Positions 1 through 48,101 of a stretch of DNA of 64,000 nt are shown piece by piece. The translations under genes and the position numbers were made by a program. Source of the DNA: Takakia lepidozioides (Eukaryota > Plantae > Bryophyta). Under the pieces are notes generated by a model, which made no database searches, was not told the origin of the DNA, and saw only the letters and a program-made list of their open reading frames with translations. Numbering within the stretch: position 1 is the stretch's first letter; each line of letters opens with the position of its first letter. Location: positions 18,414,001-18,478,000 of the forward strand of contig CM060732.1 in NCBI GenBank assembly GCA_030704615.1. The letters run 5' to 3'.

Positions 1-1
1 G

Positions 2-430
2 ACCAACCTAGCACCACCAGAGTTGCTCAAGAGAGCATATGATTCCATTCAACGGCCACCCAGTCTCACGGTTGAGGGCATTTTGGACCAAGGGAGGCAG
101 CCACAGAGGGTGCGACATGATGACCATCCACTTTTGGTGGTGGTTAATCGAGTGGGACAGCCACGTACGGCCTTGCCTACACTTGTGAGATTTCCCACGT
201 CTCATGCTTTTCAAGACAATGGTCCAGGGTTGATTTGGGACAGTGCACTACAGCAATTGATGGAGCCCAATGCGGATGAGAGAGAGCGGGCAATGGGGTT
301 TGACACAGGCACTACAGCTATGCCAGCTCTATCAGAGGCATCACGCCGATAGATGTTGGGTCAAGCAATGGATCTAAATTGCTTGACATGGGTCATTAGC
401 TTGTGCATGGTTGAGCAACGGAGGTTGTAG
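2..430 (+). pseudogene. C-terminal part of a DNMT3-like C5 DNA methyltransferase domain inside the Gypsy polyprotein
   Basis: Frame 2 reads TNLAPPELL...LTVEGILDQGR...EPNADERERAMGFDTGTT...SEASRR*MLGQAMDLNCLTWVI. This matches the end of C5-MTase motif VIII (WxNL), motif IX (ExERxxGFP) and motif X (RxxxLG). In-frame TAG stops at 350 and 428. Confidence 0.8.
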
Positions 431-936
431 ACAGTGGTGGCTACTACTGCACTCCCATTGGATAGTGCATCCTCCCTGCCAACCGGGACGGTTGAGGCAG
501 TGAGTGGGGGCAAGCACAGGATCATGGGGTGCAAACACCCATGGCAGATGTGGGATCAGATGCGGAAAAAGAGAGTCATTGGGTCTCTCAAGGAGCAATA
601 TGAGGAGTGGGGAGAGCCATACACGGAGGATCAGTTGGAGGCCAAGGTGGCCAAGGCTCTTGAAGAGGTTGAGGATGTTTCTTTTGCGGAGGATGTTTTC
701 AAGGTGGCTATGGCGGAGCAAGTGGAGGCTACGCCATAGTCAGGGTGGGCAGATAAGGCCCAAGAGATTGCTATCTAGCAACCAAAGGTGCGTTTCCTAC
801 TTCCAAGCTTGGTGTACCCAAGGTTGCAGTCACTGAGGACAATTGCGAACCAGATGTCGGATCTACAGTCACTGGAGGAGAAAGACGGAGGATCCAACGA
901 TTTCTAAGGGCTTATAAAAATTGCTTTGCCTTCGGT

Positions 937-2271
937 TTGAAGGATTTGGGGAGTTTGAAGGGCCAGGAGATTCGTATTGATTTGGCAAGTGACACGCCAA
1001 TTTTTCGAAGGCCCTACAGGTATAGTGACATAGAGAGGTCTTTGATCCAGTCGCGGACTATGGAGTTGTTCGAAGCTGGATTGGTGGAGTTGTCAGGTGG
1101 GGGGTATGCCTCGGCAATGGTGATGCCAGCTAAGAAGGATATCTATGGCAATTGGACAGAAAAGAGGATATGTGGGGACTACCGTCCTATGAACCGTCAG
1201 ACTAAGTCCGATAGATATGCCATGCCAACTCCAGAGGAGATCTTTGATGCCATTGGGCATGCAAAGGTGTTTAGCACATTGGACTTGCGATCCGGTTACC
1301 ACCAGTTGCCAATCAAAGAGGCTGACAAGCAAAAGACGGCATTCTGGGGGATTGACCAACATGGGAAGGATTGCTTGTACCAATGGCGGTTCCTACCGTT
1401 TGGGTTGAAAAATGTTCCTACAGAGTTTCAGATGGTCCTGGATAGGATTCTTGCGGGGCTAGACTTTGCCCGGTGCTACATTGATGATATCATCATCTTT
1501 AGTGCCACAGTTGAGGAGCATGAGAGACACCTTCAGGTGGTGTTTGAGCGCTTGAGAGCGCATGGGTTGAAATTGCACCCTGGGAAGTGCAAGTTCTTCT
1601 ACAGCCAGATTGAGTATCTAGGCCACATGATATACCCTGGAGGACTGGGTGTTCAAAAGACGAAGGTGGAGGCCATTCCACGCATTCCACGCCCCATAGA
1701 TGTTAGCAGAGTTCGTGCTTTCATGGGATTGACAAACTACTATCGACGGTTTGCAATCAAGGGATTTAACAGCATTGCAAAGGCTCTTACCAAGTTGACC
1801 AAGGTGGGTCAGGGGTGGCAGTGGGAGGAGGAGCAGAAGGAAGCCTTTGAGGAACTCAAGGTTTGATTGACTTCTGCACCTATTTTGAGGCGGCCTACTC
1901 AGGGGCGGCCTTTCCAGCTACATACGGATTGGAGTATGCTGGGGATTGGGGCAGTGCTCGCACAGGTGGATGATGAGAGAAGAGAGTTTGTAGTGGCATA
2001 TGCTAGCCGTTCGAAGAATGATGCCGAGATGAAGTGTAGTTCCTATGAAGGGGAGTGTCTAGCTGCAGTATGGGCAGTGGCACATTTTAGATGTTACCTC
2101 TATGACAATCTCTTCACCTTTTTCACGGATCACCAACCATTGAAGTGGTTGATGGAGTCAGACAAGCTTAGGGAAGCTTGCACGGTGGGCACTTATGCTT
2201 CAAGAGTACGACTTCCAGGTGGTGCATCGAGCCGGTGTAGTCAATTGGGATGCAGATGGGTTGAGTCATAA
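937..2271 (+). pseudogene. Gypsy reverse transcriptase and RNase H
   Basis: ORFs 937-1866 and 1867-2271 share a frame, separated by a single stop. Motifs DYRPMN, LDLRSGYHQ, PFGLKN, YIDDI, TDWS, YSxxEGECLA-like. Frameshift near 2170. Confidence 0.95.
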
Positions 2272-2359
2272 TCCATGCACGAGCAAACATGATGATACTA
2301 GAGCTCGGTGGCATGGTGAGACGGATGAGGAGATGGGAGGATAGCATGCATCTGCCTTT

Positions 2360-3919
2360 TTGTGCATTCTAGCAATGGGAGCTCAAACTGGTCCATCCCA
2401 TGTGATTGGTCATGGAGATAGTGTGCATGACGATCCAGAGATCAATGAAGAGTTTGGTGGTGCTAAGGAGGTGCATGAAGATGCAGCAGTGTTGGCCTAC
2501 CTTTGTATGGGAGAGACAGCAGCCAATATGACTGCTAAGGAGAGAGATCGAATCCTACAACGGGCCAAGAGGTTCAAGTGGGAGGGGACTTATTTGCTCC
2601 GAGTATGGGAGGATGGACGAGTGAGGATTGTGCCTCATCCAACACAACGAGCGCGATTGGTACGCCATGCCCATAAGGAGTTGGGACATTTTGGGGTGCG
2701 ACGCACTTATGGTTTGCTGCAAGGGCAGTATTGGTGGCGGGGCATGCACACAGATGTGCAACAGTTAGTGGCAAGGTGCATGGTGTGTAATAGGGTGCGT
2801 GCTTCCTTTAATGCACCTATTCCACAATTGCATCCTTTACCCATCATGAGATTGGGATATCGATGGAGTCTTGACTTCGCGGGACCATTGCCACTGACGA
2901 TGCGCCACAACAAGTATGTGCTGGTGATGGTGGAACACTTCTCCAAATGGATTGAGCTGGTGCCATTGTCTGACGAGGCAAGTGAGGAGGCTGCGTATGC
3001 ATTCTTAGATCGAGTGCTTAGCCAATTTGGTGCTCTAGCCGAAGTACTTACAGACCAGGGGAGAGAGTTCTTGGGGGAGTTTCAGGATTTGTGTGAGCAA
3101 GCCTTGATAGATCACCGCACGACTTCTCGGGATCATCCCGAGGCTGATGGCTTGGCGGAGAGAGTTGTTCAGACAGTCAAGAGGGGTTTGCGCAAGTACG
3201 GTTTGCAGAAGGGACACCTGGGAGATTGGGACCTTCAGCTACCTTGGTTGGCTATGGACTATAGGTTCAGCAAACAAGCGTCACTTGCCTCCTTCTCACC
3301 TTACTTTCTTCTCTTCGGCCGAGAGCCAGATTTGCCTACATCTATTCGCAGGGAGGCTGCAGTAGTCCTTGACCTTGATGATCCGGATGTGTGGATACAA
3401 ACGTGTGACCAGCGGGCAGAGTTGTTCAAGAGAGTCATGCCTATGGCTTTTGAGAACCTTGCTATTGCCCAACACCGAGACACATTGAGGTATGCCACCA
3501 TACATGGAGGCGGATATCGACCGGGTGTTCGGAGATTCAACCCTGGGGACTATGTGTATCTGCAGCAGACAGCACCTACGACCTTGGATGTCACAGCAAG
3601 GCGTGTGATTCTATGGGTATGGGAGGTGTTGTCTTCAGGAGTGTTGATTCTGGAGGGTCGAGATGGCATGGTATGGAAGGACCATGTACGCAATTGTGCG
3701 CCATATCACCTTCTACATGTGGATGGGAGGATAGATCCCAACCTTGCAGTGGTACCTACAGGGTTGCGTTGCATGCTATGTGGGCATGCTGGTGGTGCCG
3801 CAACCATGTTGGTGTGTGACAAATGCTCAAGGGGGTGGCACATGGGATGCTTGACACCGCCACTTGAGGAGGTTCCTAGCGGAGAATGGTTGTGTCCACG
3901 ATGCCTTGGACAGAGGTAG
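2360..3919 (+). CDS. Gypsy integrase with C-terminal PHD finger
   Basis: HHCC (HKELGH...CMVC) and DDE core (SLDF, TDQG, ERV). At 3770-3904, CMLC-x11-CDKC-x4-H-x2-C...WLCPRC is a C4HC3 PHD pattern. Confidence 0.92.
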   Translation: MCILAMGAQTGPSHVIGHGDSVHDDPEINEEFGGAKEVHEDAAVLAYLCMGETAANMTAKERDRILQRAKRFKWEGTYLLRVWEDGRVRIVPHPTQRARLVRHAHKELGHFGVRRTYGLLQGQYWWRGMHTDVQQLVARCMVCNRVRASFNAPIPQLHPLPIMRLGYRWSLDFAGPLPLTMRHNKYVLVMVEHFSKWIELVPLSDEASEEAAYAFLDRVLSQFGALAEVLTDQGREFLGEFQDLCEQALIDHRTTSRDHPEADGLAERVVQTVKRGLRKYGLQKGHLGDWDLQLPWLAMDYRFSKQASLASFSPYFLLFGREPDLPTSIRREAAVVLDLDDPDVWIQTCDQRAELFKRVMPMAFENLAIAQHRDTLRYATIHGGGYRPGVRRFNPGDYVYLQQTAPTTLDVTARRVILWVWEVLSSGVLILEGRDGMVWKDHVRNCAPYHLLHVDGRIDPNLAVVPTGLRCMLCGHAGGAATMLVCDKCSRGWHMGCLTPPLEEVPSGEWLCPRCLGQR

Positions 3920-4175
3920 TAGGCATGACAATGGTGAAGTTGGCAAGTGATCGAAGGTCTAGCCAGTGGGAATTCAACGTCATGGATACTCAATTGAAGA
4001 TCACGGATTACAGGCAGACGACTAACGATGGGGCTACTTGTGTACCCGGCCTCTTGATTTATCGACTTCAGATGTTGGGACTTATACGATTGAAGACCAA
4101 GCGATGATCTTATTGGGTGGATACTTGTCAGCTATCCGGTGTTAGATGGACCTAATCACCAGCTAGGGGGGCGAT

Positions 4176-4698
4176 TGTGGCATAGCTTTCTAGGATTGTG
4201 TGCTTAGATTGTGTGTAGACGACGATGTATGTTGTGGCACGATGCTTAGGTGCACGACAGCTATAATGGTTTTAGTCATGGTTAACTAGAATTACCTACT
4301 TCTAGTTAATTAGGACATTTTAGATATTTATATGTGCATTTTGTGTGTTGGGACTTCATTTGGTCTCATATGCCAAGTGAGGAATCAAGCCTCACTTGGG
4401 ACATGGGGATGGGTTTTCCCCTTGTGAGGGTTGAGGAGGCTCATCTTCTGGAAGTTGAGCCTCCATGAGCCTCTCCCACCTCCATAGCTCTAGGTATTGA
4501 GAGGGAGTGTGGGGAGGGCTTTGTAGGGTGGATTCCTTTAGCAAAGGTGCCATTGACTTGCTAGTTTATGTGATTGAGTGGATTCATGAGTGGAGTGTTT
4601 CCATTGTGTGTTCACTTCCATTATCATTGTGGCATAGCTTTCTTAGATTGTGTGTGGACAGCGATGTATGTTGTGGCACGATGCTTAGGTGCACGACA
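4176..4698 (+). repeat. Gypsy 3' LTR with an internal direct repeat at both ends
   Basis: Starts TGTGGC right after the purine tract and ends GCACGACA at the junction with Copia RT sequence. 4176-4259 and 4628-4698 are near-identical. Confidence 0.8.
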
Positions 4699-7600
4699 GG
4701 CCTATGTTTGTCATGTCAAACCTTTTGCTTAGCTGTGCCTGTATCCACTCGATTTTTTTAACATGATCTCCAGTAATGAGAAGGTTGTCTACATACAGGA
4801 CAATAACCATAATCTTTCCATCTTCTATACAATAATATAGATTGTAGTCTGCATTACTCCTATGTAGACCTTGAGCTTTAAGATAGGCGTCTATTATTTC
4901 GTACCATTCACGGGGAGCTTGCTTCAGTCCGTAGAATGCTTTGTTGAGTCTGCATACCTTGCTCTCTTTTCCTTGGACGATGAAACCTTGTGGCTGCAGC
5001 ATGTAGACCAACTGCTTTAGGTGACCGTTGAGAAATGTTGTTTTAATATCCATGTGATACATGGGCCAATTCCGTTGAGCTGCAAGGGCCACTAGAGCTC
5101 TCAAAGTGCTCCACTTGGGCACTGGGGCGAATGTTTCCTCGTAGTCCACTCCTTGACGTTGCTCAAATCACGGACCACCAACCAAGCTTTGTAGACTGGT
5201 TGAGCTTCACCTAAGCCTTGTTTCAGCTTGTAAACTCATTTTGCACTTCGTTCCTCTTGGAAGGTCTACCAGATCCCATGTAGAGTTTCGATCAATACTG
5301 CGCATTTCCTCGATCATAGCAAAGATCCAAGCTGGATCCTTGCATGCCTGTTCAAAAGTCACAGGTTCCTCAGAAGTGGTGACGGTGATTGCGTGAGCTG
5401 CAGGCTTTGTGATTCCAGAGATGATATAATCCTTGTGCCAATCAGGTGCATGTCTTTCACGAGTCGGATATCGTTGAGGTGTTGGCACCGCAGTCTCCTA
5501 ATCAGTTGGAATATTTACTGCAATCTCCTGATCAATTGGAATATTTACTGCAGTCTCCTGATCAGTTGGAGTATTTACTGCAATTTCCTGAGTTGGATTT
5601 ACATCCTCGGGTGCCAGAGTGGACCCTTCCTTATGTGTACTCCCATCTGTCTTTATGAATGGGTCATGTACAATGATTGTATGCCGAATCATTGGTTGAT
5701 ATGGAGGGGTGTCACCTTGAGGAGTAGTCTCCTTTTCTTGGGGAGGAACTAAGTTCCCTGGGGATGGTGGGATGAAATCCCCAAGGCCTGTAATTACCTC
5801 TGGTGTGGTCGAGAGGTTGCGATCAGAGATCTGCAATGAACTCTCATCAAAGACCACGTCTCTGGAGATAACAATTTTTCTCTTCTCTGAGTCAAAACAT
5901 ATGTAGGCTCTTGAGTTTGTGTCGTATCCCAGAAAGATACATTTTCTAGACCTGGCCTCCATCTTTCCTCTTTCTTCTTTGGGAATATGCACATAAGCAG
6001 TGCAACCAAACACTCACAAAAAGGAAAGATCTGGTTTGACCTTGGAGTATTTTTCCTCCGGGGTAATACCAGAATTGGCTTTTGTGGGAGATCAATTTAC
6101 CAGAAAGTTTGCCGTGTTGAGTACCTTTGGCCAGAGATATTTTTCCACTGGGGTAGAGACAACCATGCTCCGCGCTCTGTCCAAGAGAGTTCGGTTCTTT
6201 TGTTCCGCAACCCCGTTCTGTTGGGGCGTGCGTGCTTGGGTCAGTTGCCGATGGATGCCTGCATTTTTGCAAAAATCTTCAAAAGCAGTGGACAAGTACT
6301 CTCCTCCCCAATCTGTTCGAAGCGCTTCGATCTTGAGCCCAGTCTCGTGCTCAGTAAGAGCCTTGAATCTCCGGAAGACCATTAGAGCTTCACAGTTCTT
6401 GCTGATAAAATAAATCCAGGTTTTTCTAGAGAAATCATCTGTGAAGGTAATAAAGTACCTAGACCCCTTGAGAGATTTTGTGGCTAGAGGGCCACATATA
6501 TCAGAGTGAATGAGTTGTAAAGGTTTGTTTGCTCTATTTTCACTTTTCTTTGGAAATGTCTCTCTGCAGTGCTTGCCAAATTGACAACCTTCACATATGC
6601 AGGTAATGAGAGGTAAATAGGGGATTCCTTTTGCCACATTTCAGCTGGACAAGTGGTGAAGGCTTGGATAGTTAAGATGCCCCAATCTATTGTGCCATAG
6701 ATGTACATCAACCTTTCCTTCAACTAGATTGACTTCTATTCCTGGTTTTGGAGGTTTCTTTCCCGTATCAGTGCACTTGCTACTATCAAATACAACAACA
6801 AGATTCTTATTGACTAAAGCTCCTACAGATAGTAAGTTCTTAGTCAGACCCGGTACGTAGAGAACATCATCGAACTCCTTTATTTCTCTAGAATTGCCAC
6901 GAAGGCTCACAGTGCCAGTCCCTTGGAATTTGTGAGGCACTCCTCCAGCTGTGGTCACATTGTAAGACTTGGTGGAGGGTTTGATCTGATCTAGCAGAGC
7001 TGGATTGCCCGTAACGTGCTTGGATGCTCCAGAGTCGATGATCCAAGATGGGTCATTTGTCTCTATTGCCAGAGCTGTGAGTGCTTCCTTAAAGACCTCT
7101 AAAGCTAGGGCCCTCAACATCCTCAGTACTCTCTTCTGCACTAGGATCTAGTATCTCATCGGTGTCACAGTTTGTGAAATGTGCTTCATGGGGACGAGTT
7201 GGCCCTGGCCCGTTGTAGTGAGTACACTCGCGGGCCTAGTGGCCTGTCTTGCCACATTTGTGACAGACATCAGCCTTCTTGGATGATCCTGAGCTATCCT
7301 CAAATGCTCGCTTGGCATTGAAGCGGCCATGATGTTTGCGCTCTTTTAACAACTTCCGGAAACGCACTATGAGGGCATCCTCCCCGTCATTTTTCTTGGC
7401 TCGATTGATCATATTTTCTTCTTCCAAGAGCATGCGGCCAGTCAGCTCTTCCAAGGAAGGAAGCTCCTTCTCACAAGAAATGGCTCGGATGAATCCATCG
7501 TAGCTGTCCGGGAGTGTGTTGATGACCTGCTCAACCACCATGCCATTGTCGGGTGCTTCATCTGTTACGTGTCTCATGAAATCAGCAACTGAACTACCTT

Positions 7601-8027
7601 CGGACATCTTGAGGTTAGAAAAGTGGTGCCTCACAGGTAGCCTCTTGGTGTTGTTCTTGGTTTCGAACATCTTTGTGAGGACCTCCCAACATTCATTTGG
7701 ACCATTGCAGTTCATGATGAACGGGACAATCTGATCCTTGATAGACAATTTGAGGATCGCAAAGGCCTTCCTCAATCTAGATCTCATGGAGTCCGGTCCT
7801 GAACTGACCGATGAGATTTCACTTAGGGTATCAAGGTTCCTGATTCCCCCCAATGGGTTTGTTGGAGATGTGACAATATTCCACAAGTCCTGACTCTCTA
7901 GGATATTCTGGATCCTGAACTTCCACATATTATAGTTCGAGGCTCCCTCAAGTTTGTGACAATCAGAGAGAAGTTGCTCAATTCCAGGCATACTGTAAAG
8001 ACTTACATGACACATGAAACAAAACAA
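4699..8027 (-). pseudogene. Copia gag-pol, fragmented by stops and frameshifts
   Basis: ORFs 7236-8027, 6641-7141, 6092-6637, 5498-6013, 5207-5488 and 4685-5149 are consecutive pieces of one polyprotein. Confidence 0.93.
5491..5590. repeat. 30-bp tandem repeat (about 3.3 copies) in the Copia INT-RT linker
   Basis: Units at 5491, 5521 and 5551 (cagtctcctgatcagttggaatatttactg-like), encoding QE[IT]AVN[IT]P[IT]D on the minus strand. Confidence 0.9.
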
Positions 8028-8263
8028 GAAGAAAAAATATGATAACTCACAGCAGTGGATAAGACTGCACTCGCTTTACGACAAAAGGAACTGATGCACT
8101 GACCACTAGCCTTAAAAGTGTCAGTCACCTAAATCAAAGCACCCGTGTGCTAGCTACTAGCTCTATAGCACTAGTCAGGGTGGGCCCTTACTTCGACTAC
8201 TAACTGTATAGTATCGAGTTGGCTATCCAGAAGACCTCAGCCGCTAATCTTATAGCGCTAGGC

Positions 8264-8275
8264 GCTCTAATACCA
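8264..8275 (-). promoter_or_regulatory. Primer-binding site (initiator tRNA-Met type)
   Basis: Minus strand reads TGGTATTAGAGC, one mismatch from TGGTATCAGAGC, and abuts the LTR. Confidence 0.85.
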
Positions 8276-8546
8276 TGTTGGTTTCGTAAACTAAAACAAG
8301 TCAAGAAACAGAGCACATGAGGTTCCTATAAATACTGAGAAGGACCACTGAGCCCAAGGGGCTGGTCCAAGGCTTGCCCTTGACCCTGAGCTAACAAGTG
8401 GGGTTTCACTACTTGATAATGAGCATATCTACACAAAGCAAGGAATTACAAGTGTCACTGCTAATCATGATAAGAGAAGCTACACTAAGAACCCAAGCCA
8501 CACTAAATAATAAGTGCTGAAACATGAAGAGTGGGTAGTTCCAACA
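8276..8546 (-). repeat. Copia 5' LTR (271 bp)
   Basis: Inverted termini TGTTGG...CCAACA, adjacent to the PBS; flanked by ATTAA (candidate TSD) at 8547-8551. Confidence 0.85.
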
Positions 8547-8832
8547 ATTAAGCTAAGAAGAGGCCTCAAAGAGGGCCCGGAAAACTGCGCACCCCATGCC
8601 AAGGACATTAATACATGGATGGTGTGGCAATGGGACCCAGCAGCCGTATGCTTGGAGAAGTGTACGTGGCCAAGGCAACCTTCTAGAAGGGTCCCACCGC
8701 TGAGGGCTCGGCGGGCTTGTAGAAGGTCCCACCGCCCTGTGAGGGTATATAAAGAGAGTCGGGGGCTCTCTTCCCCTTATTCATCTTTGCTCTACTTCTA
8801 TTAATTTATTATGTCATGGTTTGTGTTTTTTT

Positions 8833-8870
8833 GGGGCCCTGCGTGTGCAGAGCCCCCCCCTAGGTACTAG
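8833..8870 (+). mobile_element. Helitron-like 3' terminus
   Basis: GC-rich hairpin GGGGCCCTGC-GTGT-GCAGAGCCCC (8833-8856), a 10-nt spacer, then CTAG followed by T. Confidence 0.55.
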
Positions 8871-8999
8871 TAACTAGTAAGTGAAACTTGGCTATAACAG
8901 GCTTAGCAAATTCAGTTACTATAATTTAATACTAGGAAAATATTAGACTGATCTGATCAGTCTAAATGTTGACCGAACCTCAGAGGACAGAGAACTTAC

Positions 9000-9602
9000 C
9001 CCTCCCTTTTCCCCATGCTACTGAGGTCCTGACAGGGGAGGCCGCCAACCACGAGATCAACCTTCTTATCAATGGCTATTCTATCAAGTATCCGTACATC
9101 TCCGACATGTTGGACTTCTGGATACCTTGCTCTTATCACTTGGATTGCTGGTGCACTCTGGTACTCAAATCAGCCCACTCTTGCATTAATGAAATGCCGG
9201 CACGTTGGTATCCATTTGATAAAACTGATAAGTCATGTACTTCACAGCTTGACGAGCTTTTGGCATTGTAAGCATTCTCTCTACGTTTCTAGGAAGTACA
9301 AAAGAAAGAATCATGCTTTAAATATATTGTGTATCTTCATCCCTAAGGAGTTCCGCCCTCCACTTGGAAGATGGACTACGTTTACAAGTGTATCTTGCCT
9401 CAACAACACATTCCCTCCAAGCAACGCCTCATACTAACCACTTTAGAGCTGTAGCCAACAAAAGGGATGCCAAGACGAGAAAGCACTGCCGGATATCACC
9501 AATTCCGTCAAAGAGGCTCAGGACCACAAGCTTGTCTCCCTTCCATGCCCCTGCATCGTTCTTGAAAGCCGTCACCCAGTCTCCATCTCCCTCATATGGG
9601 GC
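9000..9602 (-). pseudogene. Spliced C5 DNA methyltransferase pseudogene (DNMT3/DRM-like), exons for motifs I-IV
   Basis: Exon 9602-9439 (AG...GT) reads KLVVLSLFDGIGDI, then a frameshift, then AVLSRLGIPFVGYSSKV. Exon 9157-9000 (CAG...GTAAGT) reads SAPAIQVIRARYPEVQHVGDVR...KVDLVVGGLPCQDLSSMGKREG, including the catalytic PC. Not in the ORF track. Confidence 0.88.
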
Positions 9603-9709
9603 CTACAAGTTTGTGTAATTTGGGATCATTGTGAATTCTCTTTAGCGTGACCGTTCTTATTGAACTATCCTGTTATGTAGATGCCCTTGCTGTATTCACA
9701 CCAGACTCA

Positions 9710-12427
9710 CGAGTTCACAGATCTAACGGACCATTGAACCAACAGGCCCATATGACTTATAGTCCACAGTTGGCTTCTTCTAGAACGTCCTATCGATCCC
9801 ATACCTTTCAGAAAATTATTTACAAACAAAACAGGGAATCTAAGAGTAAATCTCACCGTCAAGTTTGCTGGCGGCACCAATGGTGGTAGAAAGAACTCCC
9901 TCCCAAAGAAACTGTGGTAGAAAGAACTCGAGCTCAGTGTAGCACTGGGTGGCCTCGTGGTATCTTGCTTAGTCTTCCGCGCTGGTGATGGCGTTCGAGG
10001 GGAGGGAGAACCCAATTGCTTGTCTCTATCCTCCTTTAGATTCCGAGCTGCTTTCTCAATTTTTTGGATTAGATTGTCCATCTTCCTGTAAACTTGTCGT
10101 AAAGCTTGATGGCTAACTACACTCTAAGAAGCCCTGGCCAATATGGTGAATCTAGAAGATAATTTCAAATCCTTTCCTTTCTAGTACTAGGTTAAAGAAC
10201 TTCCACAAGAAGCTCGAATCTTGAGTTACGAGACAGTAATGCGAAGGGCTCAAAGAAAATTAGAATTATAATCTAGTTCATATCTCCTGTACATACATCT
10301 GCCGGGAGAGAGAGAGAGCTGGAAGAGTGCGTTTTGTGGAAGGGCTAGAGATATGATTCCTCCATATCTGCTAAGAATCCATATTGAAGGCTAACAATGC
10401 GAGAAACTGTAACTTAGGTGAAAGTCTGCATCCAGAGGCAAAGGAACGCCCATGAGAGTACACATCCGCTGAGGCGGCTATCCGCCGTGAATTGGCAAAT
10501 CGAGGGTCTTAGTTGCGCGAGGTTTCTCGGCCTCCACGAGGAGACCTTCGTGAACAAGTCCACTCGGTAACACATTGGACAGCGTCGCCACCCGGCACAG
10601 GAAGCACACATGGAAGTGGTAATCACTTCTCTTTCAAAAACTTCAAGTTTACAACACTGCTTTCGGATCCCTTCATGATGGAGTACCATTGTACTACGAT
10701 CCCTTGGATAAAGCCAGATCAATAGAGGTGACACAATTCCAGGCTGAGAAACTTGAAAATTTTCTCGATAGACTGATGGTGATCGCGCCTGAGCTAATGA
10801 TGTAGAAGTTTCTTGCTTGCTCGATTAGCGGACACTTGACATTGCAGCAAGGTTTGACATATCACCACCTTGGATCCAATTGCTAGACCTGCATATGACA
10901 TGCAAAAGCAAGGTGGATAGGATGAAGATAATAGCCTTCATGCATGTCAATTCTCAGAGCATAAGAAGACAGGCCGAGACGTTCCTTCAAGCTGCACTTG
11001 GTTAACTCCTGGTGCTGAGCTGAGCTATGGAAACCAAATAGGAGAAAATCAGGGATTGAAATTAAGCTGCTACCACCCCGAATCAACACGAAATCCAAAG
11101 GAAATCATGAAGCCAAGTTTCACGTACAGATTAACTACACATAGTGCTCACGAATTTGTTTCACTAATCATAGAGGAATCATAGCCAGATGACAGTGAAC
11201 CTGGCCCAAGTTTAGAGAGAAGCACTAGCGATGGATACTAAGGTTCATGGCGTGTCTCCCGCGCTGACGTGCTTCCAGTTGACCTCATGCTATTCAACTG
11301 CTTCACTAATCTTCGCCCGCATAGATTTGATGACTTATGACCAAACGAATCTTGCTTCATGGTGAATGCAGAGACACCATAGAGGAGGAGGAAAGACTGT
11401 TTTAACTTCTAAGCCCGGGTTTGAGTTTCAACAGATTTGTTGGGTAGTCTCAGCTCGTAGAAAGAGTGAGGATCTCAGATGGGCTTCTCTTACAATGTTG
11501 TGGATACTATCACTTGCTCCTTCAGACTCAACACTGGACTGTCCACCTTGTGAAACGACCATTGACATCCCTTGCTCATAGAATTAACTTTCCAAATATA
11601 CCAAAGGGAGAGAGGATCTACACAAACTTCTCAGTTCCTTTTTGGCCTTCCTGATCGAAGGGCCGTTTTACACTAGGGCCGAAGCCCAAGACCAACTGAG
11701 AATGGAGCATTCCCATTGGCAGAGGGCTGAAAATTGGGCCCAACAGCTTTTACACTACGGCCCGAGCCCAAGAAAATGGAAGTGGGTCATTTGCCTACAC
11801 GGCACCTACATGGCACAAGTTTCGGCGCCAACTTCTTGGGCGGGACTAAGAAAAAGAACCCTCCTAGAGTGGAGACCCAACTCTGGGCTCTTGGGCCCAA
11901 GAAGTTTGGTATTAAGATAGACTATTTTTGTGCGATCATGACTGTTTGATCATGACTGTTGAAGTTGGCCCAAGCCCAGCCCAAGAGTGGTAGAAATTGG
12001 GCCTAGGATTTCTTGGGCTTGGGCCCTAGTGTAAAGTGGCCCTAATTCTATTTTTCCTTCAATTCTTGTGCCTTGGTGTACCAAAAATTTCCAGGTTTCT
12101 GGGGTGCCTGACTGCTAAAGAAGGAAGAGCAAGTGGATGAGGTCTAAAACTGCAGCAGCCAAGGACTCCACTAACACGAATATACTGAGAATCTGTAGTA
12201 TTATACTCCTCAATATACTCCAGCAAAAATATAATATGTAAAGTAATATTCAACAAGTGTTTGAAGGAAACATGGTTCAGGCCACCGTGTTCTCTTCGTT
12301 GATCGATGAGAGAGTTGGGTGCTGCCCTTGTTGTGGAGCAGGGATGATGTGCGCAGGTGCGGAAGCTTGTGGAGGTCGAGGCTGTGGGGAGGTAGGGATC
12401 CTCACTCAGACCTTCACAAGTGTGCAT
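9710..12427 (-). pseudogene. Probable decayed upstream (N-terminal) exons of the methyltransferase pseudogene
   Basis: Coding-like minus-strand blocks with GT donors (about 9710-9805, 9857-10085, 10415-10745, 10888-11040, 11210-11640) carry scattered TAG/TGA stops. Linkage to the MTase exons is inferred from strand and proximity only. Confidence 0.4.
11660..12042. mobile_element. Tourist (PIF/Harbinger)-like MITE
   Basis: TIRs GGGCCGTTTTACACTAGGGCC and GGCCCTAGTGTAAAGTGGCCC; flanks GAA and TAA (imperfect 3-bp TSD); non-coding. Confidence 0.75.
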
Positions 12428-13232
12428 TAGAATCCATAACGTCCTCTTCCCAACGTTATGGGTGGATCTCTCTCTCTCTCGGAACCCTAAACCCTGGAGG
12501 GAATTTATGTTGGTATTATATTACGCTTAGGCAGCACAATCATCGTGAATTGGGAGTTGTTTGTTGTAATTTTCCAAGAGGTTCTGTGTAAAGTGTGAAG
12601 AAAGTAGCTAGTTTGTGATCGTTATGTGGGGTGCACTCTGGAACAACCTTACATTTCCAGTATCGCCACGGATGTCTATTGTAACCTACAGATATCCTGA
12701 TCCGGACAGTTAGCCATTCTGGTTTTAATGTATACTTTTGACTCTGGCATTGTATCACAAGCATTGGGGAAGTACTTGCGGCACAACATGGGGATGAACC
12801 AATTTTCCTGTAGGCCAGAAACTATAATCGGCACACAGTTTTTTGCTTCCGATATTACGTGGCGGAGGTACAAGGTGGCATATTTGACTTCTGGTGGTCA
12901 CAATTGGCATCCAGGACTACCCCCTTGCGGTGGTAGGAGTATGACTCGCACCAGAAGTGCATTCATTTGCGGGCCTGGAATGTGGACTGAGAACATCTCT
13001 CTCCCTCTCTACAGCCTTTTGTTCAATATCTGATCAAACAGTTAGGCCTAACATTCTGGGTACAATGGTTTCTCTGAATTCCCTCAGGCAAACAGCACTT
13101 GGGTCTGCAGCTAAATCAATTCTCAGGTTAAGTTATCCATAGTTAGTAGTATACTACAAATATGCCCCAAAGTACCCAGTACAGCCCCCATAATACCTAC
13201 GGTATGGCATGGTTGCAGTGACAATTGAGGGG

Positions 13233-13422
13233 AAGAATCAATGTATGTTATTGTGGTGGTATTGTCTCCTACTTCTGTGCTCTTTAGGCCAGAGATTGAT
13301 GGGCTGGAGTGCAGTTAGGTCCTGAAAGAATCAATGTATGTTATTGTGGTTGTATTGTCTCCTACTTCTGTGCTCTTTAGGCCAGAGATTGATGGGCTGG
13401 AGTGCAGTTATGTCCTGAAAGA
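13233..13422. repeat. Tandem duplication, 2 x about 93 bp
   Basis: aagaatcaatgtatgttattgtgg...gtcctgaaag repeated with about two mismatches. Confidence 0.9.
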
Positions 13423-13552
13423 GTCTTATATAATTCTACTCAAAAAATGCGGCAAGCAAACAGATTTATAGGAGACTCTGGCCACTAAAAACGTATCCCG
13501 GTGTTGTTGGTTTCTCTGCAGGTTGGATAGGAGGACCCAGTAGCTTTGACCA

Positions 13553-14295
13553 ATGAGTAATCAAGTCCCTGAGCAAAAGAAGGTCAAACTGACCCAGAGT
13601 ATATGGACATGTTGTTCGGTTGGCCAGCTGCTGGGGGCGGTGGTCCTTCATAAAAGGGGAGATGGGGGCCCATCCATGCCCCTCAGGGCATTCTCAATTG
13701 CATCCTTGCTTCTAGGGGCTGGGGCATGTGCTGTTGGTGGTGCACTTCATGCTAGCGGAATTCGAGAGGTTAGTGCCTGTAAGGTGCCAGCTTTTTTGGC
13801 AAATCTTGAATCTGTAGTAATCAGTCTGTTGGATGTGAGGGGTTTTACGCCCTCCAAAAGAGGAAGGGGTGAAGTTATTTTGAAAACTCTCACTACTGGA
13901 AAGCCTTCTGGAAAGCCCCCTCTGCTGTTCCCCTCACCCAACTTTTTTCTGCTCAGTCCAAACAGGGTGCAGGGATTGTGGCCACAAGGCTGTGGGATGA
14001 GAACAAGTTCATAAACACTCTTCTCGCTTTCTCCTGTTCTATCCTTTCCTATTTGTCTAACGTTGTGACTGCTGTTCAACTTGCAGGGTACCAGGAACAG
14101 GGCTAGAGTTGTAGTGCTGATGTCCTTGACATGCATCCTACCAGAATGTCACTGCTGGAGGCCATAAATTCTCAACATTGTTGTCTTCTTTCTGACTAGT
14201 GTATCTCATTGTGGTGGAGGCAGGTAAATGATTTGGTGAGCGGGGGTCAAAAGATTCGACGTGCTCTTGGCAAACCTTCCCGCAACCAGTCATAA
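13553..14295 (+). CDS. Small (95 aa) conserved plant membrane protein, 2 coding exons (13553-13768, 14224-14295)
   Basis: Canonical GT/AG phase-0 intron. Product includes MPLRAFSIASLLLGAGACAVGGALHASGIRE|VNDLVSGGQKIRRALG, with hydrophobic segments, and resembles an uncharacterised land-plant family. Confidence 0.7.
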
Positions 14296-14359
14296 TCTTT
14301 TCTCTTTCCTTCTTTTTGCCTGTTCCTCTCCCTCTCTCTCTCTCTCTGATATCTCTCTC

Positions 14360-16641
14360 TCAATGGCCACAAGGCTACGGCAAACAACGTCTTATGAGTA
14401 CAATCTCTCTCTCTGATATTTCTAGGTCTAACAGTGAGGGGTCTTCTGCTGAATGGAGGGACACAGTTGGAAAAACTGTTCCTATGATTCAAAACAGCCC
14501 TGATGAACTGGAGTATATTTCAATGGCTTATAACGCTCCCATTAGTTCTTCTGAGATTGTGGAAGCAATTGAACATTTAAATGGATATAAAGCTGGTGGA
14601 CCTGATGGTATTGTCAACGAGCTTATCAAGCATGGTGGCGATCCCATGATAAAGGCCCTAGTTCTCCTCTTTAACCTTATCTGGAAGACTGAAATGATCC
14701 CCTTTCGCTGGCGACAGGGGGTCATTGTCAATCTATACAAGAAGGGTGACAGAGAAGAACCGGGGAACTACCGTGGCATCACGCTCCTCAATGCTGTTGG
14801 CAAGACATTCTGCAGAGTTATAAGTACTCGTCTCGAGGTTGATCTGGAGTCTAGAGGTTGTTTCCACGAAGGCCAAGCTGGCTTTCGGCGAAACAGGGGC
14901 TGTGTGGATCATATCTTCACTCTAAGCCAGATTATCCAGGGAAGGAAAAAAGAAGGGAAACCCACTTATGTTTTTTTCCTGGATGTCAAAAAGGCTTATG
15001 ACACTGTGTGGAGAGATGGCCTATGGTTCCGCCTATGGTCTTGTGGGATCAAGGGAAAGATGTGGAGAGTTGTCCACAACTTGTATGCTCACACCAAAAG
15101 CTGTGTCACTGTTAACGGACAGAAGTCCAACTTCTTTGACATAGACCAAGGTGTAGCTCAAGGATGTACTCTCTCCCCTCTGCTCTTCAATGTTTTCATC
15201 AATCAACTCCTTGAGGATGTGGAAAGTGAGGGATTTGGGTTAAGGGTGGGTGATACCACCATACCAGCCCTTATGTTTGCGGATGACTTCGCAGGCATAG
15301 GGGAGACTCCAACCAATCTCCAGGAGTTGATTGATTGCGCGAAGAGATACTTTGATCTTTGGGGGCTAGAGGCTAATGTCAGCAAATGTGCAGTGGTAGC
15401 ATTCAACGACAGAGGAGAGGGAGGAAGTGATCTTAAGTGGCAGTGGGGTAGCCAAGAGATCCCGGTCCTCCCTTCCTACACTTACCTGGGCGTTGAGTTT
15501 TCCTCCAATTGTAATTGGGATGCACATATCCGGAAAGTTGTTCAAACTGGCAAGGGCAAAGCTCTGGGGCTCACTAAATTTTTCTACTGCAGAGGGGTCA
15601 ACTCTGAGGTTACGAAAACCATGCTTTGTTGCGTTATTAGACCTGACCTGTCTTAGAGTATGGATCTGCAATATGGGTTGATAACTCCAACCAGGCTAAG
15701 TCTCTAGAATCCATTCAAGTGGGGGTGCTTAAGGAGTGTATGTCAGCATGCTCCAAAACAGCCAATGTGGCTGTTCGGGGTGAGTTTGGCATTCCGTCCT
15801 TAAGCTCCCGACGAGATGAATTCAAGGTCAGATGGTGGGGTCAGCTGCAACATATGCCCAACACCAGATATCCTAAGCTAATCGACTCTATATCTTGGAA
15901 ACAGGACCGCCCTGTCAAACAGGCTAAGTCCTGGCAGAAGAGAGTAGAAGAGATTCTCAAGGACCTGGACCTGGATCCGCAAGTCTTGACCCTGCTGGAT
16001 AATCTGACTTAGAGGCTGTAGTGTCCAAAGCCATGTCTGTTGCCATGAGATTGTCTGATGAAAATGAAGTAAGGCAGAAAACTTCCCTGAACTTGTTTCT
16101 AGTCAGTGACATGGGGGAGGACATCTTGGATGACCTCAAGGGTCTACCCACTCTCGGCACTAGACTGAAATTTAAACTCAGGGCAGGAAGCCTACCTTTG
16201 AACAGCAAACAGAAGCAGAGAGGAAAGGGAGAGTGCAATTGCCCGTTGTGTAGGCAATCTGAAGACAGTATTCATTTTCTGATACACTGTCCGGGGTTCT
16301 CTCACCAAAGAGACGCTCTCTTCAAATCTATCAAGGGAATTGTGCATGTACCCCTGTTTACCAACTTTGAAAGTCTCGAGACTGAGCCAAAAGCCCAGGC
16401 CCTCCTGAGGCCTAGTTTTTGGGCAAATCACACACAGCAGATTGATGCTTGTGTGAAGGGATTTCTAGAGGATATCTGGAATACCCGGATTAATTCTATA
16501 TATGAAGGTAAGTCTTACTACCAACGTCAGCCCCTGACAGAGGTAGGTTCTGTCCCTTTTGTTCCCGCTCAAACTGGGCGCGGGGTCAATGGCCACAAGG
16601 CTACGTCAAACAACGTCTTATGACTACAATCTCTCTGATAT
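14360..16641 (+). mobile_element. 5'-truncated non-LTR retrotransposon (LINE; RTE/RTEX-like, clade uncertain) with a duplicated 3' end
   Basis: RT motifs GPDGI, NYRGITLL, QAGFR, LDVKKAYD, GVAQGCTLSP, FADD and a C-terminal CPLC...HFLIHC finger; no endonuclease. A GACCT duplication near 15645 causes a frameshift. 14360-14420 duplicates 16586-16641. Confidence 0.9.
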
Positions 16642-21534: not shown

Positions 21535-24500
21535 TCAAGAACAGCAGCTTGACTTTTGTGCAATGGCCTGGCCCTTCATCTGCACTGTGTTGGGCTTACT
21601 GCTGCTCAGTGCTGGTTGGCTTGCCATCCTGCTCCCCAACCCTCCATGTCACAATCTGCATTTGGAAGATTACCCACACTATTTCTGACTTGCTAAACTA
21701 AGGTTCGTACTTCTCAGCTCCGAGAGCTGGATTTAACAAGTGGGACAAGTACAGCCCATAGAAACCTACAGAAAAGAAAGAGAAAGAAGGAAACTGATTT
21801 CTTCCAAGAGGTGGGCTTGAGTCATAAAAACTTTGATGATGGGAACATACCTGTTCTTGATTTCAGCAGCCATTGTCATGAAAGCCTGTTCAACATTGTT
21901 GGCGTTCTTTGCACTGGTCTCCAGGAAAGGGATGCCAACCTCATCCGCAAATGCCTGCAGTGTAAGGTCCATGGTAACATTGCTTGCTTCATTTATTGTG
22001 TAATAACCTTGGCAAGCTAAGTGGATATGGGCTGAGAAGCCAGTACGTATTGTACATATTCTGCATACTAATAGTGGGGACCTCTTCATCTTTTCCATCT
22101 TTTTCTAGGACAGATTATTCTGCCTCTCTCAAGAAGAAAACAAGCTAAAATGATGGAGACCGATGGCTGCTATCACGTAGTGGCTCAGGAGGGGTGCCTT
22201 ACAGGAAGCTCATAAGCCCTACTTTCTGGTGATGCATGACTCAGTAATCGAGCAATTTAGCTGATGTTTGTTTGTGTCCTTCCCCTACAAGTTCTTCATG
22301 GACGCGGATGCCTTTTTACAAGGCGCAAATGGTCTTGTGATGCTAAGAAGAGATTACAGGAACAGAGAGGGCTCATCTAAAAAATACCTTGGCAGTCTGG
22401 GTGTCCACCACCTTTTTGCCAACAAGATCAGACTTGTTCCCAACCAACAGCTTGTTTACGTTTTCGCTGGCATAGCGATCAATCTCATTCAACCACTGCT
22501 TCACATTGTTGAAGCTTTCTGCATCTGTCACGTCATATACCACCTGCTCGCAAGGTTGCAACAACTTGTGAGATTTTGAAAATTGCCATTTGTAGAGATA
22601 ACAGTCTCCTTTGGAAATCTAACCCTCTTGGTCTACCATTGTTGCATAGAAATCTTGGTCACATTTCCAAATAAGAAATAACACTATCCACAATGATGAG
22701 GCCACCAGTGTCTGCAATCCCACCAGAGTATCAGCATGTCAAGCAATGCAACTAAATGGGGAGAAGGAAACAGCAGATGTACAATGATCCCATGAGCACC
22801 CCGATAGTAGCTACTGGTGATGGTCCGGAATCGCTCTTGGCCTGCTGTGTCCCACTGCCAACATATCACCCCCACACAAGTTCTTTGCACTTTTCAGCTA
22901 AAAAATGTGGACTCTTGCCAAAGCAAGTAACTTATATTCTCACATGACCCCTGAAGGGCGACTGCCTTTCAATGGGAAGGTGGACACCTTTATGACATCC
23001 AACACACTTATGTGATTTTGAACCCACAACCACTAGTGAAACATATTGACACTGGGCTATCTATTGGACGTCCTTTTCTGCTAACATATATCAAAGTGAG
23101 AGCCTAGTAAGCTCTGAACTCACCTTTGTGAGGTAAGCAAAGATAAACGAAATGAGATAGCCACATCCAAGGTAAAGAAGGGCTTTCAAAGATGAAAACA
23201 GGAATATCACACAGAAGAAATAAATAAAAAGAGGAAGGGAACCAGAAAGAATGCTGTTTCATAGTAGACAGTCAATCTAAGAGTAGAAACGAATAAACTA
23301 CATCCTTGTTCAATAATGCAAACATACCATGGAAATGGATAAAGAAAACAGGAATTTCAGAGAAAGACACTAAAGTCTCTAAGACAGCTAATACCGTCCC
23401 ACTGTAGAAAGGTAGATAGAAGTGACGGAGGTAAGAAGACATACAATCTGAAGCTTAATCGTCTTCCCATCCAGCTCAACTGTCCTTATTTTCTGTGTGT
23501 CAAAATTCCAGTCCAACCTATTCATAAAAAGTTCCAGTAGTATCTTCCTATAAAAACAACCAAGGTGAACGTGGCCCAAACACGTGCAAAGTTCAGAGAG
23601 CAAGAGCATTCATAAACCTGCCAAGAGTCCAACACATTGCACAGACACCCTCAAGTTTGCTGTCAGGCCAGATTTTGTGTTTTCAAGGGGGTTCCTTAAC
23701 TGGAAGTACTGAGGTATGTTGTCAATTCCATTGACTCAAATAAAAACGCCCAAAGAAACTTACAAAATCGACACCAATAGTACTGATATAGCTCTCCAAG
23801 TAGGAGTCATCCTGCACCACCAGACAAAACCCCTTCATTAGTGTAGCAATATCATCTGTCCAAGTATAGAGTAACAGCTCTATACAGGTATGAAAGGTAA
23901 TCCAAACAGATGTTGCATGAGTGCCAGCAGGTTGCTATAATAGAGCTGCCTTATACTAAGCTAGAGATTTGAGTCTAACTAACCAACATTGATGTCTACA
24001 TTTCTGCACTTATGAAACATCCAAGAAGCAGGCTCATTAAAGCTTCTCAATTTCCATTTAATCATATGACCCGAAATATAGGGTTGTCATGAGCTTACAG
24101 CAAACCGGAGTAAAAGGCACGACTTTCCAACACCCGAGTCCCCAATCAGTAGCAGCTTGAAGAGGTAGTCACTGTCACCAACCCATTCATGCATTCCATG
24201 AGTCCAATAATATGGTAGAGAGAGAGAACATGCCAGCTTATACCAACATCTGCTAATGGTTAACCACAACTCACTGCCATTCTTTGACACCATGCAAGAA
24301 GGTTTGACCACGATTTGAAACTGTGGACAATTCCTGATTTTCTTGACAAGGTGGGAGGTGCTTCATAGAACAAGACAGGTCTACTCCCTGGAGGCCAAGA
24401 TGAATAGACACGGCCCTTCAGACCCCCACCCTTGACTATCCCTTCTGCAGTGCGTTCTCCAGTTGCTCAACTGACTCGTTGCTCAAGTGCTTACTGACAA

Positions 24501-27813: not shown

Positions 27814-28344
27814 TCACCGATTCCTGACTCGACCAAATTTCGGCCTATTTGCCTTCCTCTCCATCTTTTCCATTTTTCGCTTCTCTTTCTCATTCATGGG
27901 CGAATCGTCACTGGTCCGTTGGAAGAAGAAAGGATAGAGGGCTAGTTGCCACAACTTGTAGAAAGCAAAAATGGGAATCACAAGGTACACAAACCAGAAC
28001 TTGCCAGAGATTATGGACGAAACCTGGACAAAGCTGGTGATATACAGAATGTCATGGAGGTAAGCGCAAAGTCCCCCAGTGCTCATATCAAACCCACCAT
28101 CCAACAGCTCCCCTGTGCTCTCATCGAAAGAGGGTTTGGCCATCCTCGCCAGCTGGTCATACACCAGCTTGTAAGCACCTGTTGTCACGCACAATCCTAG
28201 TCCATCCTTCCATGACAGACTCCCATATCGCATTCCAAGCCTCAACACAACGTACAGAGCATTGCATATCAGAATTACATTACGCAGCATGCGCATGTGC
28301 TTCTCGTTCTCCTCCTTCCGTTTTTTTGCGCCCTTGTTCGCCAT
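27814..28344 (-). CDS. TMEM208: Transmembrane protein 208 / SND2 homologue (DUF788), intronless, 176 aa
   Basis: MANKGAKKRKEEN...LLDGGFDMSTGGLCAYLHDILYIT...LVIPIFAFYKLW with a basic C-terminus; single open frame from the ATG at 28344. Confidence 0.9.
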   Translation of the reverse strand: MANKGAKKRKEENEKHMRMLRNVILICNALYVVLRLGMRYGSLSWKDGLGLCVTTGAYKLVYDQLARMAKPSFDESTGELLDGGFDMSTGGLCAYLHDILYITSFVQVSSIISGKFWFVYLVIPIFAFYKLWQLALYPFFFQRTSDDSPMNEKEKRKMEKMERKANRPKFGRVRNR

Positions 28345-29534
28345 CTCTTCCGCCCTCGCACCCTCAGTCTGGCTATGGCGGGAGGATTTTCTTACTGGGA
28401 ACAATGGGCTAACAATCTACCATGTTAATATAGAAAACGAGGTTTTGGGAACCTTGTCGTTTGTGTAAGCTCTACTTCCAGGAATTACAACAGGAACCGG
28501 CCCACCATGTTCCTCTCACCTCAAGTTCACCAATAAGTATATGGGAACCTTAGCGCGCCTCTCTTCTTCAGGAAAAGGTCCGCGGACCCTAGAAATTTAT
28601 TCGTACAGTGAAGGCTGCTCTAAGACTTGTGGCTCTGCATCGCAGCTCGTGAAAATTCATATGTGAGATACCGGAGCAACTTGGTTTATTTTCAAATTTG
28701 GAGTGAGCCATACTGGCAGCAGCAGATGCTTGTGATGGTTTACAGCATTTGACAACTGCCTAACCCAATTACCTCTTACATTGCTGCACCCGCAATTTGT
28801 ATGTCACTCATACTCCATCAAGGGAACACTAGATGATGAAGGACCTATGAGTGGTATTGTGCAGAAGGGCTTCATGCTGTCCACAATGCGGAACCAGGAA
28901 GTTGGGTGCAAATCTTTATTGAGTCAGGCACATAACAAGTAAGCTTGTTGCCACCAAAACTTGTAACAAAAAATTAACAACATGATGAGTAGATCACAAT
29001 TGAACCAGGGGTGCAAACTAGAGTGGCACCATCTTTGCCACCCCAAGCAACACATTGGTGTATTGGTGTAAAGAGACAAAATACCTTTTACCTCCCAAAA
29101 CCAGCCGTAGTCTCCAATACAAATAGAACATAAAACCCCTTTGTTGTTTCCAGCATTGTAGGAGCTTATGACAAAGGAACCCCCAAAAAACAAGGCTACC
29201 ATGGCACCATAAGCTACTTTTGGTTGAACTTTGGCTGACTAGTAGCATATACAAAATAGGCTGACTCCTGCCAAAGCAAGCGTAAATCATGGTGTCCCTT
29301 CACCCCAAAGGGAATCATATACAGTGTAGAATAGATCAGATAATCTGAACTTCCATCCTGTGTCTGTGTGTATATGTGTGGAAGAGAGCAATATAGCACC
29401 CATACTATTGAAGAGAGCTGCTGTATCAACTCGCTCTCAGAGGAGGGGCCATTTCAGTCTTCATTGGTGATGATTGGTTATCAGCAGCCATTTGCTCCTC
29501 TTCAGCCCTGTCAATGGCAGCATCTACATTGTCC

Positions 29535-32500: not shown

Positions 32501-33396
32501 AACTTAGTTCTGATTCTCCTATCTTCTTCCTTGCCATCACAGTTGCGGCTGCAAATGCCAAAGGTCTCCTGCTCCTACATTATTTGCCATCCACCGTGGC
32601 TTTACTTTTCAACCACTACCTTACCCCATTATTACTAGCACCACAAACAGTGGTCATGAGAGGTTGCTTATATGGCAAGGTTTCTCCACCCTGCATGAGC
32701 CGCACTAGTTGGGGAGTGCCACAGCTCAGCCAGAGTAAGAGCACAGGTTGAAATGCATCATCTAAGCCGAGACTCACCCTCCTCTAGGAGATATCTCTGG
32801 CACTCATCTCCAGAGAGCTGCTGACTGGCAGCATCAGTTAGCTCTTCCCAGGGCTCACCGGCAACAATAGCCCTTTCTCTCTCACTTGAAGACGGTGGTA
32901 CTTCCCCGCCCTCCTCTATTGATTTGGTCTCCTCTCCGGCTTCAGGAGTTCCACTCCATGGCTGTGCCTTCTGAACAGTTGCTCTCTTGTATCCAATGTA
33001 TCGGATGGCTTTCTCATTTGCACCGGAGGCCTTGTCGCTAGAGAGACTCCCAGGGCCAGCCAAATTGCATGCATGCCCATTAAATCCCCTTGATCCCGCA
33101 CCACTAGAAGAACTTAAGATCAGACCGTCATTCCCAAGAAGGCCAGCCATGGGATTGCTGGTCAAGGCCGATGAGAGATTAAGTTTGGCTTGCTCGCGCA
33201 TTTGTTGCAATGGAGCGTGCGATGATGTCTGTTCTTGCAAAAGATTAGTAAAGGAAAAACCTGAAGGTGTACTCTCCACTAATTGCCTCCCCGTCTCATC
33301 GTGTTTCTGAATTTCTCTTTCTCTTGTAGTGCCACTGCTGGCCTCACCAAGTCCCATAAAGTCCCGGGCAACCACTTGGTCTCCCTCTCTCCCCAT
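29535..33396 (-). CDS. JAZ: JAZ (TIFY family) jasmonate signalling repressor, multi-exon
   Basis: N-terminal RDFMG; exon 32210-32167 GMRWPSWNK; exon 30981-30882 AQLTIFYAGTVNVYD; exon 30626-30257 AQAIMVLA; Jas exon 30093-30036 ELPQARKASLARFLEKRKER; last exon 29712-29535 ALTKQPY. Exon boundaries between about 31.1 and 32.0 kb were not resolved. Confidence 0.93.
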
Positions 33397-40693: not shown

Positions 40694-41302
40694 CCGACTT
40701 TCATCATTTGTAGATGGACATAGGAAGACATTTTGTATATTGAGGTGGCTTCCTCCACCGTGTATATATATACATAGGCATTGATGTGTATTTGGATGCA
40801 GTTTTTCATGCTATATTCAAGGGAGTTTGGGTGGACGTTATATGTGAATTTGGGTATTTTGAATTATATAGTGTCTCCTTCATGTGGTGAAGCAATGTAT
40901 GTATTCCCCTCGTGTGTACAATGTGTACTTTGGGTTTTATCCTGTATGATAATGAACAACGCCATGTATGGAAATTGATAATGACATGGTTGTTTTTGGG
41001 CATCTTAGGATGCCGGCCACAACCCCACGACGTTAATTCATGAAGTTCATGATCTTGTCATGAACTGGGATTTTGTTCCTTCGGAGGGGGGTGTGTATCA
41101 AAGGGACCTGACAATTAAAAAAAAAAGACCATATCATGTTGGCTGCCATTGTACCGTATGAGTGTTCCCATTTCATGCTTATTATTACTTTGGATTTTAC
41201 ATTAATCTTCTTTTCTTTGGCGCAATTCCGATGGAAGATTGATGAGTGATGTAATCATGTAGTAAGATGTGTCATTCGTTATGAAGTATAATTAGCATAC
41301 AG

Positions 41303-48030: not shown

Positions 48031-48079
<49 letters not shown>

Positions 48080-48101
48080 ACCACCCCTGCTGGCGGTCGC
48101 A
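47390..48101. repeat. Palindromic TGCGACCACC array 2, with (TA)n at about 48036-48076, upstream of TTATAA at about 48161
   Basis: Same motif as arrays 1 and 3, but internal to the element. Confidence 0.9.

Follow-up and report, generated by a model that had tools for sequence, protein, structure and literature searches.

A broken copy of a moss-type DNMT3 gene and repeat-borne DNMT3 pieces in a genomic window of Takakia lepidozioides

Gene model of the DNMT3 relic

Six-frame translation of the window (the whole stretch of DNA analysed, 64,000 nucleotides) revealed VLSLFDGIG (about 9524-9498), HVGDVR and DLVVGGLPCQDLS on the minus strand. The first-pass annotation had assigned these peptides to two GT-AG exons. 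Both exons were present, separated by a 281-nt intron, and a third exon could be added as the first of the gene. The resulting model is as follows, with motifs numbered according to the established C5-methyltransferase nomenclature.

10081-9857, minus strand: DNMT3 relic exon 1; ATG at 10081, 75 codons, frame open, phase-0 donor GTGAGA
9856-9603, minus strand: intron 1; 254 nt, GT..AG
9602-9439, minus strand: exon 2; motifs I-II, 164 nt, 1-base deletion near 9490; G111D, A115V, E129K
9438-9158, minus strand: intron 2; 281 nt, GT..AG; separates the VLSLFDGIG exon from the HVGDVR/DLVVGGLPCQDLS exon
9157-9000, minus strand: exon 3; motifs III-IV, HVGDVR and DLVVGGLPCQDLS; catalytic Pro-Cys retained; F170L

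Directly after motif IV, where a donor site had been proposed, we found GTAAGT at 8999. A different donor, with GTGATA following GIG, was rejected because homology continues past GTGATA in the next frame.

Exons 1-3 together cover the opening 182 residues of a plant DNMT3. When read through the frame break (X at the break), residues 1-182 aligned to residues 1-179 of Sphagnum P0167 (E 4e-55), and the alignments to other moss DNMT3s likewise began at position 1. The peptide was recognised as a C5-methyltransferase, as the exon 3 frame matched Pfam PF00145 (DNA_methylase) at E 4e-08, above the curated cut-off. With a land-plant DNMT3 profile, exon 3 scored 79 bits and the motif I exon 38 bits, versus a best score of 7 bits on the reversed window. 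Exon junctions were shared with other moss gene predictions (P0001, P0006, P0008 and P0009 start or stop there). A profile search of window positions 1-8990 found no motif VI-X exon.

Placement within the plant DNMT3 family

With exon 3 as the query, 7 of 34 candidate proteins were returned as hits; those with names came from Sphagnum, Physcomitrium and Ceratodon and contained both PF00145 and PF11926. A Sphagnum protein query recovered the family in mosses, liverworts (MpDNMT3a, MpDNMT3b), lycophytes, ferns and Closterium. Among the best 150 of 292 representative-search hits, plant DNMT3 fragments ranked at the top and prokaryote-type enzymes below. Metagenome scans gave 61 pattern matches and 0 relatives with exon C; with the moss alignment, 80 loci were kept from 580 (26-44% identity), none matching the window at the DNA level.

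In a tree of the motif I-IV region (38 rows, built without P0176 and without DRM or animal DNMT3 rows), the relic fell within the moss DNMT3 group (support 89/99, node not starred), itself inside a 34-row plant DNMT3 clade (100/100). Over the same region the relic was 75% identical to Sphagnum P0167. Motifs I-IV follow the start, and nothing similar to motifs VI-X was found upstream of it, in line with the non-permuted, DNMT3-like order suggested beforehand.

The annotation had also proposed a little-studied methyltransferase family of non-seed plants. The copy is indeed DNMT3-like and comes from a non-seed plant; the family, on the other hand, is plant DNMT3, which has been described and already knocked out in Physcomitrium (Yaari et al. 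2019, PMC6453930). As presented there, plant DNMT3s combine an N-terminal DNMT3-type domain with a C-terminal DUF3444, are retained in non-flowering streptophytes separately from DRM, and commonly occur as paralogs in non-flowering plants. [quoted passage not shown] DUF3444 was found in the nearest relatives of the relic, which is itself cut at intron 3.

Disabling changes and a likely expressed relative

The copy appears dead, as first proposed. Exon 2 is one base short, and as spliced the frame terminates as exon 3 begins, ahead of the catalytic Cys. In the 42 columns where at least 90% of 29 land-plant DNMT3s agree, the relic was changed in 5 (G111D, the break at W113, A115V, E129K and F170L), compared with 0-3 per intact protein. 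G111 and E129 belong to the cofactor-binding motifs I and II.

DNA contigs were available from X1 and X2, two DNA runs of one sample that is perhaps the window's own source. In each run a single contig matched the relic (X1, 8856-9993; X2, 8828-10012), with 0 other letters and 0 gaps. Because these contigs match the exons without difference, the frameshift is not an assembly error; the deletion near 9490 and the substitutions in GIGD and SSKV are all present in them. The relic is predicted from its sequence to make no active enzyme and to have lost methylation activity. Introns were kept and a disabling lesion was present in the DNA, as in a duplicated (unprocessed) pseudogene. The ratio of observed to expected CpG (0.56 in the relic, 0.44-0.67 elsewhere) did not separate the relic from genes.

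A second set of contigs, X6, which is labelled RNA by guess only, contained one (record 20) with roughly 88% identity to the relic and an intact frame. It matched 10070-9981 and then 9590-9439, ending at the intron 2 donor. Across intron 1 it was 248 nt shorter than the window, equal to the intron minus 2 codons. Its exon 2 part was 153 nt long versus 152 in the window, so the additional base restores whole codons. For 12 of the 16 exon 2 differences, which are those listed, five codons were silent, four residues were changed and one position lay in the break. Record 20 kept the family residue at A115 and at the proline of G-P-W, and extended 1051 nt beyond exon 2. Neither X6 nor X7 covered exon 3, and uncovered parts carry no evidence. 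Record 20 is likely the transcript of a still-expressed relative. Contigs that may derive from such a parent are the spliced, frame-consistent ones of X6 and one X1 contig with six of their letters at 59818-59829.

Retroelements behind exon 3

Repeats occupy the sequence beyond the intron 3 donor.

8547-8899, unstranded: repeat of high copy number, reached after about 100 nt of intron 3; summed contig depth 1246-5035 versus 62 on exons
4685-8546, minus strand: decayed Copia-type LTR retrotransposon; LTR at 8546-8278 (TG..CA), primer-binding site, gag to RT
1-4740, plus strand: Gypsy-type element, nested in the Copia element and running past the window's left edge

The Copia superfamily is presumed from domain order. 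This element is oriented as the DNMT3 relic, and a contig from another Copia copy ended at 8546; among the contigs listed, none bridged the junction between repeat and Copia element (8546/8547). Later DNMT3 exons of the relic, if any, would lie left of the Gypsy element.

The Gypsy integrase frame (2345-3919, plus strand) ends in a PHD finger (PF00628, E 1e-10), where chromoviruses have a chromodomain. A limited check of the plant LTR classification literature found no mention of PHD.

DNMT3 pieces within repeats

On the plus strand, a second DNMT3 piece was detected at 59359-59580 (tBLASTn E 3e-14; DNMT3 profile, 48 bits), with the following features.

59365-59555, plus strand: DNMT3 internal exon; Sphagnum P0002 residues 262-323, multi-copy
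59556-59731, plus strand: retained intron, GT..AA with altered acceptor; X6 record 18 joins 59554 to 59732
59732-59876, plus strand: next DNMT3 exon, ending just short of motif X; multi-copy; protein similarity alone weak (E 0.12)
60075-60144, plus strand: another DNMT3 remnant, containing a stop and corresponding to DUF3444 in moss proteins; E 1.8 on its own; the match of X6 record 18 resumes at 60075
60875-60903, plus strand: repeat module, joined to DNMT3 exon 1 copies elsewhere in the genome

X6 records 17 and 18 matched 59364-59471, 59465-59554 and 59732-59875. Since the window keeps an intron that these contigs skip, the piece is a DNA-level copy. X1 placed 2701 contigs on 58900-61300, with 10-23 at single exon positions, and summed depth in X1 was 557-14966 over 59224-61167 versus 62 on exons 2-3 of the relic; as summed depth is not copy number, only "multi-copy" is claimed. 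A contig joining 59471 to 60834 was present in both X6 and X7, and the same form occurred in DNA. At 61169 a very high-copy element cuts the right side of this repeat.

Parts of exon 1 (9856-9898 and 9985-10070) were also multi-copy, and 9856-9898 recurs at 57360-57405. At 10015 and 10028 the multi-copy pieces agree with the X6 contigs and differ from the relic. An X2 loose end before 9985 matched the module at 60875-60903, differing in 3 of 29 positions (a fit reached in 0 of 100 shuffles).

Multi-copy pieces of host exons with a retained intron, as found at 59-60 kb, are a feature of captured gene fragments. A DNA-type transposon family has probably captured and amplified DNMT3 pieces (exon 1, and internal exons with their intron). 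A CACTA transposase remnant (PF02992, PF13960) neighbours the region, and no matching CACTA..TAGTG end pair could be assigned around the piece. The internal exon was nearer P0002/P0166 (48% vs 39%) and the 5' relic was nearest P0167; therefore, two donor paralogs are possible.

Within the repeat at 59200-61168, the stretch 60256-60395 matched further contigs of X6 and X7 at about 92% (1136 and 1578 nt) with no Pfam hit, and is perhaps a second captured gene.

Other elements were observed elsewhere in the window. A DNA-transposon cluster at 39500-57800 holds CACTA transposase remnants (41296-43370) and 51-bp and 120-bp repeat arrays. Further frames in this cluster were SET-like (40298-40693, weak, E 0.004), RING (49718-50359) and kinase-like (54846-55892). 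A non-LTR retroelement with reverse transcriptase (14232-16636, plus strand, E 4e-34) has an end sequence that recurs at 14360, at 16583 and, inverted, at 58182. Host genes on the minus strand comprise a Rab GTPase gene recognised by eye (21700-23000), an intronless TMEM208 (27814-28416, E 2e-53) and a frame of unassigned family (32758-33417). A GC-rich 51-bp tandem array (62970-64000) runs past the window's right edge.

Origin of the relic

The region 9000-10081 (minus strand) is very probably the 5' part of a broken moss-type DNMT3 copy, likely a DNA-level duplicate of a still-expressed relative, and would encode no active enzyme. An expressed moss-type DNMT3 gene would have been duplicated at the DNA level. 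Free of selection, the duplicate presumably gained point changes and the 1-base deletion, and insertion of a retrotransposon in intron 3 would have cut it; these events may have come in any order. By analogy, the parent enzyme may act as Physcomitrium DNMT3b does, methylating heterochromatin de novo at CG and CHH sites without RdDM. Separately, a DNA-type transposon would have captured pieces of an expressed DNMT3 and amplified them, leaving one copy at 59.4-60.1 kb. One weak point of the duplication model is that it accepts as coincidence two DNMT3 pieces of complementary range on opposite strands within 50 kb.

It is improbable that the relic was never a whole gene and instead represents a transposon-carried capture of exons 1-3. 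The multi-copy parts of exon 1, including the recurrence at 57360-57405, and the absence of any later DNMT3 exon of the relic from the window would fit such an origin. However, exons 2-3 and both introns were covered by one contig per DNA run, the multi-copy exon 1 pieces share X6 letters at 10015 and 10028 unlike the relic, and the break point coincides with retrotransposon insertions.

Still less credible is a single gene whose halves, the 5' relic (minus strand) and the 59-60 kb piece (plus strand), were parted by mis-assembly or by an inversion of 50 kb. The two cover separate parts of the protein (residues 1-160 versus 262 onward of P0002), and their strands are arranged as an inversion would leave them. 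Against this, the 3' piece is multi-copy and exons 2-3 are not, residues 161-261 are missing in both, and no inverted repeat linking the two ends was found in the window. Divergence from the X6 matches also differed (30 of 242 versus 23 of 339 letters; Fisher p 0.028), although those matches may be different genes.

Sequence upstream of the start codon

The preferred duplicate reading places the start of the gene at ATG 10081. The annotation had instead proposed a long, unrecognised N-terminus encoded by decayed exons further upstream. The relic has 104 residues ahead of motif I, within the range of 52-127 in 28 named or full-length land-plant DNMT3s. Of 1223 ATG stretches scored with a profile of 28 plant DNMT3 N-termini, that at 10081 was the best (13.8 bits; next, 4.5), and profile comparison aligned it to the first residue of the core of the moss alignment. 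Pfam scans of exon 1 and of 9 upstream frames gave no PWWP or ADD match.

The DNMT3 profile found nothing above -2.3 bits in 10100-12500, which is occupied by other features.

10100-11600, unstranded: low-copy segment, family unassigned; coding-like plus-strand fragments, no DNMT similarity
11659-12043, unstranded: high-copy MITE; 33-bp terminal inverted repeats, summed depth 3468-7211
12240-12391, plus strand: 5' exon of a divergent spliced gene (start approximate); joins an exon starting at 13522, GT..AG ends

One plus-strand fragment of the low-copy segment (10623-10802) gave no Pfam match, 0 protein-search hits (6 candidates) and an Atlas best of 0.87. Over 11077-11569, contigs differed from the window by 4-9 letters, a hint that this segment exists in another, almost identical copy. 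For the divergent gene, the loose end of an X6 contig at 12393 continues as window position 13524 onward. The region 12240-14250 (plus strand), which runs divergently to the relic, appears to be a small spliced gene for a membrane protein; its best Atlas link is to a cluster from streptophytes (0.94), and TMEM242/DUF1358 is a weak lead only (Atlas 0.76-0.78). An intron of this gene contains two tandem 93-nt copies, 97% alike (13233-13425); Rfam gave 0 matches in the window, these copies included.

A little-known methyltransferase family with its N-terminus coded in 10.1-12.4 kb is thus scarcely conceivable and largely refuted already. In its favour, an AG-like acceptor just ahead of ATG 10081 makes an upstream exon possible, and one Ceratodon model has 32 extra residues. 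Against it, residue 1 of plant DNMT3s falls on ATG 10081, and 15 codons before this ATG the frame contains a stop. X6 record 20 extends no more than 228 nt ahead of its first match (the contig may be 5'-short), and the proposed coding stretch includes a MITE as well as an exon belonging to a gene on the plus strand.

Implications

The relic is a moss pseudogene of an ordinary kind, very probably a duplicate, and belongs to the known plant DNMT3 family. Alone it is of little importance, because DNMT3 paralogs are common in non-flowering plants, as reported by Yaari et al. (PMC6453930). Together, the relic and the repeat-borne pieces would inflate DNMT3 counts and are therefore an annotation trap.

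The probably captured DNMT3 fragments are the sole lead of interest at this window. In maize, captured fragments are described as engaging in cross-talk with their donor genes (Muyle et al., 10.1101/777037). There is a slim chance that transcripts or small RNAs of the captured copies dampen host DNMT3, such that the silencer is itself weakened when the transposon is silenced; the relic duplicate could owe its decay to this cross-talk too. If captured pieces did feed back on the live DNMT3, this would constitute a testable transposon-host conflict aimed at a silencing enzyme. A limited check of the literature found no report of such feedback.

Comparison with known systems

Among known systems, the relic most resembles the plant DNMT3s (PpDNMT3a/b, MpDNMT3a/b and Sphagnum). 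It shares their short N-terminus opening with the same helix, motifs I-IV in canonical order, the moss exon junctions and a position in the moss clade. It differs in its frameshift, its altered cofactor-binding residues and its truncation after motif IV within the window.

Animal DNMT3s carry PWWP and ADD domains before the catalytic domain. Animal DNMT3A/B (PDB 5yx2, 6u8w) were the best solved-structure matches of both exon 3 (E about 0.01) and the moss profile (E 2e-36), but the relic has neither PWWP nor ADD ahead of its catalytic domain. DRM enzymes have UBA domains ahead of rearranged motifs. The catalytic domain of DRM (PDB 4onj, 7l4c) is related (E 1e-17 to 1e-11 with the moss profile), and DRM was absent among the 32 solved-structure matches of exon 3 (E up to 1). 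In contrast to the permuted DRM order, with VI-X before I-V behind UBA domains, motif I of the relic follows the start and no motifs VI-X lie ahead.

KnitGypsy-Dnmt3, described as an intronless DNMT3 inside a Pol polyprotein (de Mendoza et al. 2018, PMC5890265), likewise places DNMT3 sequence next to LTR retrotransposons in a streptophyte. Compared with that description, the relic differs in having introns (two GT-AG introns and a third donor) and a host-type N-terminus, and in that the retroelements inserted into it.

The 59-60 kb piece, in turn, is most like Pack-MULE, Pack-CACTA and Helitron captures: multi-copy host exon fragments with an intron, deletions and mixed orientation, lying within repeats near a CACTA remnant. 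It differs from those systems in having as its donor the de novo methyltransferase of the host itself.
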